From: Octopus sinensis
Taxonomy: Eukaryota
Direction: 5' to 3'
DNA: 64,000 nt
NCBI RefSeq assembly: GCF_006345805.1
Contig: NC_043012.1
Span: 41,664,001 to 41,728,000, forward strand
In this document: positions 1,287 through 40,131 of the stretch, one piece after another
How the letters are laid out: each line of letters begins with the position of its first letter
Position numbering within the stretch: position 1 is the first letter of the stretch
Notes under the pieces: model-generated
The model's database searches: none
What the model was told of the DNA's origin: nothing
The model's input: the letters and a program-made list of their open reading frames with translations, nothing else
Position numbers and translations under genes: made by a program

Positions 1287-1562
1287 TGGTAAAAACGGTA
1301 AGATAACAAAAGAAAGAAAGAGACCTCAATATTATGTAAATAGAGGAAATTTATCTGTAAAATAATATGTGACAATTATTCAATAGCCAAGATAAAACTC
1401 TGAGTTTCGGATGCAGAGGTGGAAATCCACACCACCATCTCTTCGGTTATCTGGAGATGGCCAGATAACCGAAGAGATGGTGGTGTGGATTTCCACCTCG
1501 GCATCCGAAACTCAGAGTTTTATCTTGGCTACCGAATAATTGTCACATATTATTTTACAGAT
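1287..1562. mobile_element. Fold-back Penelope-like terminal (pLTR) fragment in (TA)n
   Basis: Arms ~1353-1454 and ~1461-1562 are near-perfect reverse complements. Flanked by TA tracts. Same family as 9840-10185. Confidence 0.65.
1461..1528 (+). ncRNA. Type I hammerhead ribozyme motif, variant core (CCGAAGA); mirrored copy on the - strand in the left arm
   Basis: ccagataa-CCGAAGA-gatg...catcc-GAAA-ctcagag-TT-ttatcttgg; stems I, II and III pair. Confidence 0.5.
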
Positions 1563-3150
1563 ATATATATATACACACACACACACACACGCGTGTGCGC
1601 AAACATGGCTACATGGTTAAGAATCTTGCTTCCTAAACATGTGGTCTTATCTAGGGTTCAGTCCCACTGTGCAGCACCTTGAGCAAGTATCTCTTATTAT
1701 AGCTAAACCCTTGTGAATGGATTTGATATATGGAAACTGAAAGTAGCCTGCTGTATATATGTATGTATTTGTGTATGTGACATCATGTGATGGTTGTGAA
1801 CCAACGTCTATAAAACATATGCCTGGCCATGGGTAAACATCATGCTAGAAAACAAGTGAGTGTTGATAACAGGAAAGGTATCGAGCCATAGAAAATCTGC
1901 CCCAACAAATTCTGTCTAACCAATGCAAGCATGGAAAAGTGGACATTAAATGACAATGAAGATGCTAATGATGGGATAAATATATATATATTATCATCGT
2001 GTCATTGTCATTTAATGTCCACTTTCCATGCTGGCATGGGTTGGATGGTTTGACTGGAACTGGTAAGCTGGAGAGCTGTACCAGGCTCCAGTTTGGTTTT
2101 GACTTGGCTTCTATGCCCTTCCTAACATCCAACCACTCCAAGCAGGATAATGTTTACTCATGGCCAGGCATGAAAAATATCACACATATATACAGCAGGC
2201 TTCTATCAGTTTCCATACATCAAATCCACTCACAAGGGTTTGGCTATAGCAGGGGACACTTGCTCAAGGTGCTACTCAGTGAGACTGAACACTAGACAAG
2301 ACCACATGTTTGGGAAGCAAGCCTCTTAAACATATAGCCATGTTTGTTTGTGTGTGTATATATATATATATACACACACACACACACGCGTGTGCGCAAA
2401 CATGGCTACATGGTTAAGAATCTTGCTTCCTAAACGTGTGGTCTTATCTAGGGTTCAGTCCCACTGTGCAGCACCTTGAGCAAGTATCTCTTATTATAGC
2501 TAAACCCTTGTGAATGGATTTGATATATGGAAACTGAAAGTAGCCTGCTGTATATATGTATGTATTTGTGTATGTGACATCATGTGATGGTTGTGAACCA
2601 ACGTCTATAAAACATATGCCTGGCCATGGGTAAACATCATGCTAGAAAACAAGTGAGTGTTGATAACAGGAAAGGTATCGAGCCATAGAAAATCTGCCCC
2701 AACAAATTCTGTCTAACCAATGCAAGCATGGAAAAGTGGACATTAAATGACAATGAAGATGCTAATGATGGGATAAATATATATATATTATCATCGTGTC
2801 ATTGTCATTTAATGTCCACTTTCCATGCTGGCATGGGTTGGATGGTTTGACTGGAACTGGTAAGCTGGAGAGCTGTACCAGGCTCCAGTTTGGTTTTGGC
2901 TTGGCTTCTATGCCCTTCCTAACATCCAACCATTCCAAGCAGGATAATGTTAACTCATGGCCTGGCATGAAAAATGTCACACATATATACAGCAGGCTTC
3001 TATCAGTTTCCATACATCAAATCCACTCACAAGGGTTTGGCTATAGCAGGGGACACTTGCTCAAGGTGCTACTCAGTGAGACTGAACACTAGACAAGACC
3101 ACATGTTTGGGAAGCAAGCCTCTTAAACATATAGCCATGTTTGTTTGTGT
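1560..3150. repeat. ~797-bp near-identical tandem duplication containing SINE fragments
   Basis: ORFs 1999..2295 and 2796..3092 are almost identical and offset by 797 bp. The sequence matches throughout with few substitutions. Confidence 0.9.
1605..1970 (+). mobile_element. tRNA-head SINE with RTE-derived 3' tail (second copy ~2401-2765)
   Basis: A-box-like tggctacatggtt and B-box gggttcagtcc. The tail (aggaaaggtatc...gcatggaaaagtggacattaaatgac) resembles the RTE 3' end at 5155-5285. Confidence 0.65.
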
Positions 3151-37737: not shown

Positions 37738-40131
37738 AGCAATATAGGATGAAGTCCCTTACTCTACAGCAAAGGAATTCATCAGGAAGCGTGGCAGTAT
37801 ATTTTAAAAAAACCGTTACGGTTGCAATAACATCATATAATAAGGGCTAAAGAGGGTTATTCTAAAGCCAAATACACTGCTTTATCCACTTATAATCCGC
37901 TTGTTACAGGAAAATTGAAACTGAAAACGGGCAACTAACTTTAGAAAATTTAAATTTCGTTATCTCTATATTGAATCAATTTCGGACTTAATCTTATAAA
38001 AAAGATATATTCCTTCTTCAGTAGAAATTTCGATGGGATATAAATAAAATACTCACGTATGATCATGGAAAAAGCACAAGCTAAAAACATAACTACACTT
38101 GAGTACATCATTTATATCTAAAAATAAAAATTCTTTGGTCAGCCTCAGAAAACAACGTCCAGACCTTTCGCCGCTACAAATTGTAATGGTTACCAGTCCT
38201 CCTGTAGCAAGCATCGAGTTTACTACTAAGCAATATAGGATGAAGTCCCTTACTCTACAGCAAAGGAATTCATCAGGAAGCGTGGGCAGTATATTTTAAA
38301 AAAACCGTTACGGTTGCAATATACATCATATAATTAAGGGCTAAAGAGGGTTATTCTAAAGCCAAATACACTGCTTTATCCACTTATAATCCGCTTGTTA
38401 CAGGAAAATTGAAACTGAAAACGGGCAACTAACCTTTAGAAAATTTAAATTTCGTTATCTCTATATTGAATCAATTTCGGACTTAATCTTATAAAAAAGA
38501 TATATTCCTTCTTCAGTAGAAAATTCGATGGGATATAATAAAAATAACTCACGTATGATCATGGAAAAAGCACAAGCTAAAACACACTACACTTGAGTAC
38601 ATCATTTATATCTAAAAATAAAAATTCTTTAGCTCTTTAGCCCTTAATTATATGATGTATATTGCAACCGTAACGGTTTTTTTAAAATATACTGCCACAC
38701 GCTCCTGAATGAATTCCTTGCTGGAGTAAGGGACTTCATCTATATTGCTTAGTAGTAAACTCGATGCTTGCTACAGGAGGACTGGTAACCATTACAATTT
38801 GTAGCGGCGAAAGGTCGGGACGTTGTTTTCTGAGCCTGACCAAAGAATTTTTATTTTTAGATATAAATGATGTACTCAAGTGTAGTTATGTTTTTAGCTT
38901 GTGCTTTTTCCATGATCATACGTGAGTATTTTATTTATATCCCATCGAAATTTCTACTGAAGAGGAATATATCTTTTTTATAAGATTAAGTCCGAAATTG
39001 ATTCAATATAGAGATAACGAAATTTAAATTTTCTAAAGGTTAGTGCCCGTTTTCAGTTTCAATTTTCCTGTAACAAGCGGTTATAAGTGGATAAAGCGCA
39101 GTGTATTTGGCTTTAGAATAACCCTCTTTAGCCCTTAATTATATGATGTGTTATTGCAACCGTAACGGTTTTTTTAAAATATACTGCCCACGCTTCCTGA
39201 TGAATTCCTTTGCTGTAGAGTAAGGGACTTCAGCCCTATATTGCTTAGTAGTAAACTCGATGCTTGCTACAGGAGGACTGGAACCATTACAATTTGTAGC
39301 GGCGAAAGGTCTGGACGTTGTTTTCTGAGGCTGACCAAAGAATTTTTATTTTTAGATATAAATGATGTACTCAAGTGTAGTTATGTTTTTAGCTTGTGCT
39401 TTTTCCATGATCATACGTGAGTATTTTATTTATATCCCATCGAAATTTCTACTGAAGAAGGAATATATTTTTTTATAAGATTAAGTCCGAAATTGATTCA
39501 ATATAGAGATAACGAAATTTAAATTTTCTAAAGGTTAGTTGCCCGTTTTCAGTTTCAATTTTCCTGTAACAAGCGGATTATAAGTGGATAAAGCAGTGTA
39601 TTGGCTTTAGAATAACCCTCTTTAGCCCTTAATTATATGATGTATATTGCAACCGTAACGGTTTTTTTAAAATATACTGCCCACGCTTCCTGATGAATTC
39701 CTTTGCTGTAGAGTATAGGGACTTCATCCTATATTGCTTAGTAGTAAACTCGATGCTTGCTACAGGAGGACTGGTAACCATTACAATTTGTAGCGCGAAA
39801 GGTCTGGACGTTGTTTTCTGAGGCTGACCAAAGAATTTTTATTTTTAGATATAAATGATGTCTCAAGTGTAGTTATGTTTTTAGCTTGTGCTTTTTCCAT
39901 GATCATACGTGAGTATTTTATTTATATCCCATCGAATTTCTACTGAAGAAGGAATATATCTTTTTTATAGATTAAGTCCGAAATTGATTCAATATAGAGA
40001 TAACGAAATTTAAATTTTCTAAGGTTAGTTGCCCGTTTTCAGTTTCAATTTTCCTGTAACAAGCGGATATAAGTGGATAAAGCAGTGTATTTGGCTTTAG
40101 AATAAACCTCTTTAGCCCTTAATTATATGAT
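37738..40131. repeat. ~495-bp tandem array (~1.8 units on -, then ~3 units on +), one hammerhead per unit; retrozyme-like
   Basis: agcaatatagg at 37738 and 38229. Orientation flips at ~38630. ctctttagccc at ~38633, 39124, 39618 and 40108. TA tracts on both sides. Confidence 0.9.
38950..39015 (+). ncRNA. Type I hammerhead ribozyme (further copies 39445-39510 +, 39936-40001 +, 37962-38028 -, 38457-38523 -)
   Basis: atttcta-CTGAAGA-gga...atctt....aagat...tcc-GAAA-ttgattcaa-TA-tagagat. Confidence 0.8.

Follow-up and report, generated by a model that had tools for sequence, protein, structure and literature searches.

The 64,000-nucleotide stretch of Octopus sinensis DNA analyzed here (the window; assembly GCF_006345805.1, contig NC_043012.1, positions 41,664,001 to 41,728,000) contains a series of inverted inserts, many with hammerhead ribozyme motifs, whose families we letter A to J (Table 1). 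We put at roughly 0.6 the probability that they are head-to-head insertions of Penelope-like elements (PLEs), and of two non-coding tandem hammerhead repeats (families F and J), into TA microsatellites, (TA)n, made by two-ended priming on one RNA. Directly observed are the orientation of the arms, the TA flanks, two fixed end sites per family, the pairing of a long with a short end, variants shared by both arms, microhomology at junctions, and links to open reading frames (ORFs) in families D, E, A, and I.

The proposed mechanism is as follows: (i) the element's enzyme would cut both strands of a TA run; (ii) reverse transcription would start from both free ends, in one case at an outer site and in the other at an inner site that lies 38-152 nt further upstream, with both primings on what is probably one RNA; (iii) the trailing reverse transcriptase (RT) would displace the strand; and (iv) the two truncated copies would be joined afterwards by end repair. 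Families F and J would be mobilized in trans. We infer all of these steps, as well as ribozyme activity, from the DNA sequence.

Orientation, end pairing, and target sites

An earlier reading made from the letters alone (the sequence-only reading) had named six inserts and three fold-backs with a minus-strand left arm and a plus-strand right arm. Self-BLAST and the sequence itself bear this out at all nine places, roughly at the positions it gave, and add one-sided tails lying outside its spans (32064-32133, 31571-31656, and 21168-21263). The two arms of an insert end at different points, one with a tail (the long end) and the other without (the short end). Tails measure 62 nt in A, 148 in C, 152 in E, 70 in D, ~95 in F, ~80 in G, 97 in H, and 104 in J; in family I, a tail of 38-45 nt is found in copies outside the window.

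To see how far this geometry extends in the 2.72-Gb assembly, where TA microsatellites are abundant, top-identity hits (20-34 loci per family) were fetched, de-duplicated by their flanks, and scored by hand. The samples cover all but 8 of 40 hits for D, 25 of 45 for G, 25 of 45 for I, and 30 of 40 for H, the last anchored on the tail; a first H search, biased because it contained the junction, and a tail-anchored A search were excluded from the counts. Across eight families, 130 of 206 unique insertions are head-to-head with a terminal arm of the same family (A, 18/34; E, 27/31; D, 21/29; F, 10/20; G, 16/22; H, 17/29; I, 5/21; J, 16/20), and none of the 206 is contiguous tail-to-tail. Orientation, which the sequence-only reading had set as its own test, is thus non-random. 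The remaining 76 show a single arm in the 1.5-7.5 kb inspected, carry an internal inversion, or lie at a contig end. A LINE from the window, which targets (AAT)n, served as a control: 0 of 30 copies were inverted within the 1.5 kb around the 3′ end, with the 5′ break visible in 23 of the 30. The first look at the whole genome gave 246 to 2201 candidates per family, and together with the 76 insertions that have no same-family terminal inverted arm, this speaks against the earlier description of the window as an unusually dense system.

The pairing of ends was nearly strict. A tail-bearing end is joined to a short one in 130 of the 132 pairs in which both ends were scored, this set being the sample plus the window E copy and two I pairs from the hit table, less one F array whose right end was not seen. 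A binomial test against 0.5 for 129 of 131 pairs gives p = 3e-36. Four of the long/short pairs have a tail of intermediate length, and automated re-scoring of 106 pairs returned 100 clean, 5 intermediate, and 1 short/short. Single-armed copies stop at the same two sites, and all 10 single F copies end short.

Targeting of (TA)n, also part of the earlier claim, is well supported: 199 of 212 ends adjoin TA, against backgrounds of 9.5% and 7.9%, and in the window, 16 of 20 ends pass a strict TA test against a 5.2% background. The comparison with empty sites proposed at that time yielded one case: contig C9924 (L316, about 3203-3597) has a long/short G insertion where the window has an empty (TA)n at 3154-3186. 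A single-armed insert with a minimal hammerhead (2-bp stem II) lies between TA runs at about 53010-53225; the head-to-head geometry is therefore common but not universal. The family of this insert recurs in several fetched loci.

Coding capacity and ribozymes of the families

In families E (loci L160 and L161) and D (L175 and L178), RT and GIY-YIG frames, broken by frameshifts, are followed by the hammerhead end. In L178 and L161, an internal copy of this end precedes the ATG by about 50 nt, so the hammerhead end of D and E is a pseudo-long terminal repeat (pLTR). By the Hydra-clade criteria of Craig et al. 2021 (DKT, an RWK-like motif, absence of CCHH, and CxxC/CxH round E and N), the D protein has DKT, RWR, CDLCISE, and CMH, lacks CCHH, and carries a CxCX5C linker (CNCPDKTTC); the E protein has DKT, RWL, CNLCVSE, and CPH and lacks CCHH, and no CxCX5C linker was found in it. 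Both closely resemble Hydra-1_Obim by eye; Pfam did not recognize these Hydra-type frames. Judging from these motifs, the C/E and D inserts derive from ORF-bearing Hydra-clade PLEs, of which they are truncated ends. The E ORF in L160 (1931-3487) has long low-complexity Ser/Asn-rich inserts between RT and endonuclease, which resemble the N-rich inserts reported in rotifer PLEs. Family A adjoins a Hydra-type GIY-YIG fragment in L017 (endonuclease fragment only), where the position of the CxCX5C linker is interrupted by the arm junction. Family I matches GIY-YIG (PF01541, E=5.7e-7), and both it and the ORF at 54978 have a CX4CxxC linker (the Neptune criteria being a CX2-5CxxC linker and CCHH in the endonuclease) and, by eye, a CxxC within GIY-YIG; these motifs suggest a Neptune-like affiliation for the two, with Nematis as the alternative.

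Families F and J consist of ~490-bp tandem units whose longest stop-free stretches are 65 and 60 aa, in arrays that reach 9 or more units, and both contain hammerhead descriptor matches. On this basis, F and J are the only families assigned as non-coding, and both are classed as retrozymes. No partner ORF was found for F, J, G, or H, and for G and H, 0.6-1 kb of element sequence upstream and two further stretches of 3.7 kb showed no contiguous PLE ORF.

These assignments support the Penelope-like origin that the sequence-only reading had proposed, through the ORF links of D, E, A, and I and the pLTR hammerheads. Its accompanying idea of several non-coding ribozyme RNAs stands for F and J only: C/E and D are ORF-bearing PLE ends, A/B adjoins an endonuclease fragment, and the insert at 14867-17352 is Neptune-like, so that most inserts are not non-coding RNAs. 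A single TA-targeting GIY-YIG enzyme for all of them is not borne out, as Hydra-type and Neptune-like proteins are both present and no terminal sequence common to different families was found.

A type I hammerhead descriptor, which demands at least a 4-bp stem I, gave 11 matches in the window compared with a mean of 0.017 (maximum 1) in 60 block-dinucleotide shuffles. Ten lie inside the named inserts and the eleventh in family J (11460-11566, minus strand), and all 11 read outward. On the conserved core and the three stems of the descriptor, the ribozymes of the inserts are type I hammerheads. Both cores in the E insert at 32193-33775 fail the descriptor (stem I of 3 bp, then a mismatch, with more pairs by eye), and the hammerhead at 9830-10191 is degraded, with TAAA in place of GAAA and only the 3′ half kept in the left arm. 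At the fold-backs (14867-17352, 21091-21167, and 31389-31570), no complete hammerhead was found in the window. Longer genome copies of the G (31389) and H (21091) families carry one by eye, which the descriptor missed on short slices of those copies, and none was found by the descriptor in family I. The insert at 9830-10191 also departs from the earlier picture of TA-rich flanks, as it lies between (TATC)n and (GACA)n. Rfam searches gave no hammerhead family match, either for the whole window (E up to 1) or for two of the inserts (E up to 10), and minimum-free-energy folds of monomers mostly did not yield the three-stem fold. In family A, the core CCGAAGA occurs at 1463-1469 and 1446-1452; most copies have this U4->C change, and some retain CTGAAGA (U4 and A9 here follow the hammerhead numbering).

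Templates, junctions, and competing explanations

Which arm is longer does not depend on which arm has the tail. Among 28 E pairs, each kind of arm, short-ended or tailed, is the longer one in 9 pairs; in A the tailed arm is longer in 3 and the short-ended arm in 7. In L160, L178, and L184, the short-ended arm carries the whole ORF and therefore cannot have been copied from the tailed arm; conversely, a tailless arm cannot template a tailed one. Neither arm would then be a fold-back copy of the other, and both were most likely primed on RNA.

Evidence for a common template comes from variants and junctions. Private variants common to both arms are 4-12 times more frequent within than between insertions in all eight families (shared non-majority variants within/between: A, 0.58/0.15%; E, 0.21/0.05; D, 2.86/0.74; G, 1.13/0.20; H, 1.83/0.20; I, 1.53/0.13; F, 0.13/0.025; J, 0.54/0.12), a difference reached in at most 3 of 2000 permutations for A, E, D, G, H, and I, in 30 of 5000 for F, and in 1 of 5000 for J. 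E junctions are symmetric (within 30 nt) in 10 of 28 cases against 2.75 expected by permutation (0/20000); counts for G and I were dropped because their references are too short. Taken together, these point to one template whose 5′ end was reached by both copies. Where E arms join directly, they overlap by at least 2 nt in 8 of 15 cases against 16% by chance, and some of the other junctions bear short inserted local copies.

Twin priming, as the sequence-only reading proposed, is therefore retained in the sense that priming from both cut ends is most likely. In L1 twin priming, both target ends prime, microhomology occurs at the inversion junction, and the arms copy non-overlapping RNA segments. 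The octopus inserts share the microhomology and, most likely, the priming at both ends; unlike those of L1, their arms overlap in sequence, except in a few copies with internal, non-overlapping inversions (L151, L155, L341, and L346).

The predicted ribozyme cut was tried as a general 5′ end, by run-off, and rejected, as the partner arms of E and D show no pile-up there. Seven of 29 H copies terminate no more than 5 nt from the predicted cut, where a TGCA palindrome also lies (a post hoc test), and the G junction contains bases upstream of its predicted cut. In the H copies L341 (1293-1593) and L346 (1252-1594), the left arm stops 1-4 nt before the cut; in L346 the right arm begins just after it, so that the arms meet the cut from either side, and it is possible that both halves of a cleaved RNA were copied.

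The strongest competitor, though we regard it as unlikely, is self-priming, in which an antisense RNA or cDNA is extended into a hairpin and a staggered endonuclease cut leaves the tail on one arm. It would account for the strict long/short pairing, the shared variants, and the palindrome-centred junctions of G and H, and the 10 symmetric E junctions fit it as well as they fit two-ended priming. However, the copied arm must then be the shorter one and the polarity of the cut is fixed, so the tail should follow arm length, which it does not in E (9 versus 9) or A (3 versus 7). Single-armed copies that stop at the same two sites also count against it, and the four non-overlapping inversions require a second priming on RNA.

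Somewhat less probable still is two-ended priming on two separate RNAs held by a protein dimer. No strand displacement would be needed, the arms do differ at subfamily sites in L022 and L010, and an H/G chimera exists (L238); on its own, however, this explanation yields no excess of symmetric 5′ ends or of shared variants and does not force one long end to meet one short end.

We consider fold-back chimeras from long reads or assembly very improbable; as an explanation for the class, such an artefact is unlikely and already largely refuted. The assembly does contain stretches rich in indels: errors are frequent in the right arm at 16640-17352, where two redundant contigs also diverge (C10932 and C9060, both over 15387-17492, where the local assembly is uncertain). 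Yet arms stop at two unequal, family-fixed sites, flanks are not mirrored, the LINE control shows no inversion, and the C9924 site is found both empty and filled. As to the read support that the sequence-only reading had called for, contigs from run X15 (perhaps the source sample) contain two other strand-switch joints on the short E arm, with inserted local copies, at a depth of about 30 and with 26-29 nt on the sides of the joint, whereas no record spanning the window's own E junction is among the matches listed, and runs X23 and X24, with 1 and 31 family-E reads, were uninformative on junctions. In run X2, the sequence upstream of 32566 is the native one. The redundant contigs C10932 and C10971, which duplicate the window at 99.7-99.9%, add no independent evidence. 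Finally, MITE-like DNA transposons with terminal inverted repeats and a TA target would explain inverted ends and TA flanks but are the least credible alternative: lengths vary continuously from the centre, the ends are unequal, the arms run into RT/GIY-YIG coding sequence, and the ORF links of D, E, A, and I refute this reading.

Several points weigh against two-ended priming on one RNA. The overall difference between arms is not clearly lower within insertions (A, 523; E, 470; D, 82; H, 114 of 2000), and the shared variants could also stem from gene conversion between the two arms, a single dominant source locus, or polishing of reads. Thirteen of the 28 E junctions contain additional or mismatched letters and were left unscored for overlap. 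Among the 132 pairs, the window I copy is short/short and L428 is tail/tail, and outside the samples there are a long/long D copy (L319) and the H-long/G-long chimera L238. The sampled loci are hand-curated and of top identity, H was tail-anchored, and two I pairs were taken from the hit table. For F and J, no autonomous partner turned up. In L238 (1195-1674), the H and G long arms stand head-to-head with no TA run between them.

Features of the window and relation to known systems

Table 1. Insertions and related features of the window, in order of position (clade names rest on motifs)
Feature	Positions	Strand	Description
Family A insertion	1287..1562		Left arm (-) with 62-nt tail, right arm (+) short; minimal type I hammerhead in each arm, core CCGAAGA (U4->C variant)
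Empty (TA)n site of a family-G insertion	3154..3186		
B, older relative of A (72-81%)	9830..10191		Long left arm cut off within hammerhead; short right arm, core degraded; flanked by (TATC)n and (GACA)n instead of (TA)n
C, subfamily of E (about 79%)	10828..11312		Tail of 148 nt on the left arm (long end), short end on the right; 51-nt spacer (11119-11169) without a match among 435 fetched loci except redundant contigs
J, non-coding 488-bp tandem unit	11337..12015	-	Absent from the sequence-only reading; hammerhead 11460-11566; short end at 11337; ~13-nt plus-strand micro-arm of long end near 12003-12015
I, Neptune-like PLE insertion	14867..17352		GIY-YIG fragment about 15660-15960 (+); short at both ends (exception); right arm rich in indels
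H	21091..21263		Short left arm, long right arm (97-nt tail); arm junction is a TGCA palindrome, 1 nt beyond the family's predicted hammerhead cut
G	31389..31656		Short left arm, long right arm; junction at palindromic hammerhead stem III
D, Hydra-clade PLE ends	31731..32133		Left arm ends short, right arm bears the 70-nt tail (long end); junction symmetric; hammerhead in each arm
E, Hydra-clade PLE	32193..33775		Short left arm 32193-32567; right arm from 32566 with GIY-YIG C-terminus, 3′ UTR, hammerhead, and 152-nt tail; junction overlap 2 nt
F, non-coding ~495-bp tandem retrozyme	37738..40131		Minus-strand arm (about 1.8 units) bears the long end, plus-strand arm (about 3 units) the short end; of five hammerheads, four have an additional A following A9
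Neptune-like PLE ORF, 5′-truncated	54978..56882	+	RT, CX4CxxC linker, GIY-YIG; no link to any hammerhead family shown

Insertions stack in the same TA runs (B, C, and J at 10334-10831; G, D, and E at 31329-33888), and each seems to leave new TA targets. At 1561-3169, a hairpin composed of two short repeats in head-to-head arrangement is duplicated in tandem (797 bp, 99%); contigs C12456 and C10485 appear to have only one unit. The window also contains an RT with a PHD-like finger, fragments of a PIF1 helicase, a young LINE with an (AAT)n tail, and a mariner transposase (as a group, at 3207-4628, 6785-8065, 44279-46814, and 53598-54491).

Much of this architecture is known. In the parts of the literature covered here, to which all comparisons below are limited, head-to-head copies are the most frequent arrangement, with junction palindromes and a tail on one pLTR, for which antisense self-priming was proposed (Arkhipova et al. 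2013, PMC3846280). The same insertion unit and (TA)n bias are described by Craig et al. 2021 (PMC8557442), who call the mechanism undefined, word the tail as a product of resolution, and list an octopus Hydra member with (TA)n preference and a canonical hammerhead. For a lizard PLE in vitro, Frangieh et al. 2024 (PMC11167929) report that both strands are cut and extended from two adjacent internal start sites; a dimer is predicted, and ribozyme cleavage is not needed. PLE hammerheads have been reported as weak and dimer-dependent (PMC4209133). Cervera and de la Pena 2020 (PMC7229834) put forward a dependence of animal non-LTR retrozymes on PLEs, and Li et al. (bioRxiv 10.64898/2026.07.22.740005) derive retrozymes from PLEs.

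The octopus inserts match the canonical endonuclease-containing (EN+) PLE unit (PMC3846280; PMC8557442 Fig. 2) in the inverted 5′-truncated copy, junction palindromes, tail at one end, and pLTR hammerhead, but differ in tail length (38-152 nt here versus 30-40 nt) and in the near-strict long/short pairing, counted here over 206 insertions. They resemble the Hydra clade in DKT, the RWK-like motif, absence of CCHH, CxCX5C (in D), CxxC/CxH, canonical hammerhead, and (TA)n insertion; unlike that clade, E has no clear linker motif and a long low-complexity insert, and the tail is located about 50 nt ahead of the ATG, not within the ORF. Hydra-1_Obim is listed without a pLTR, whereas one is present in D/E. 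Families F and J resemble non-LTR retrozymes as non-coding, low-GC tandem units with one type I hammerhead each; their head-to-head arrangement, two end sites, and TA target, a PLE signature, were not found in those accounts. With the PAc in-vitro system (Frangieh et al. 2024), the inserts would share two adjacent internal start sites bounding a tail, AT-rich cleavage, and extension of both strands; PAc, however, belongs to the Poseidon clade, shows no start-site difference between strands, and leaves inverted pairs unexplained.

Head-to-head arms, one-sided tails, (TA)n targeting, and pLTR hammerheads are thus all published for PLEs; the architecture is known and the families are new. No count of long/short pairing and no account of PLE twin priming was found in the literature covered, which did not include Arkhipova 2006 or Evgen'ev and Arkhipova 2005, both of which may bear on the point. 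New here are an end pairing that is nearly strict, evidence that speaks against simple self-priming, and a PLE signature carried by two non-coding retrozymes.

The mobilization of retrozymes by PLEs has so far rested on co-occurrence and sequence kinship. With young, abundant families that have two sharp end sites, both questions, how PLEs insert head-to-head and what moves retrozymes, become countable and give precise predictions for the in-vitro system. More tentatively, and at somewhat less than even odds in our judgment, an asymmetric dimer may prime both ends of the cut (TA)n at two fixed sites of one RNA, and the same machine may act in trans on non-coding hammerhead RNAs of ~490 nt, perhaps with both arms copied by rolling round a circle. 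If this is true, the antisense self-priming model for head-to-head PLE copies would be replaced, the F and J insertions would be a direct footprint of PLE enzymes inserting animal retrozymes, and the octopus genome would be a natural read-out of the PLE integration reaction.

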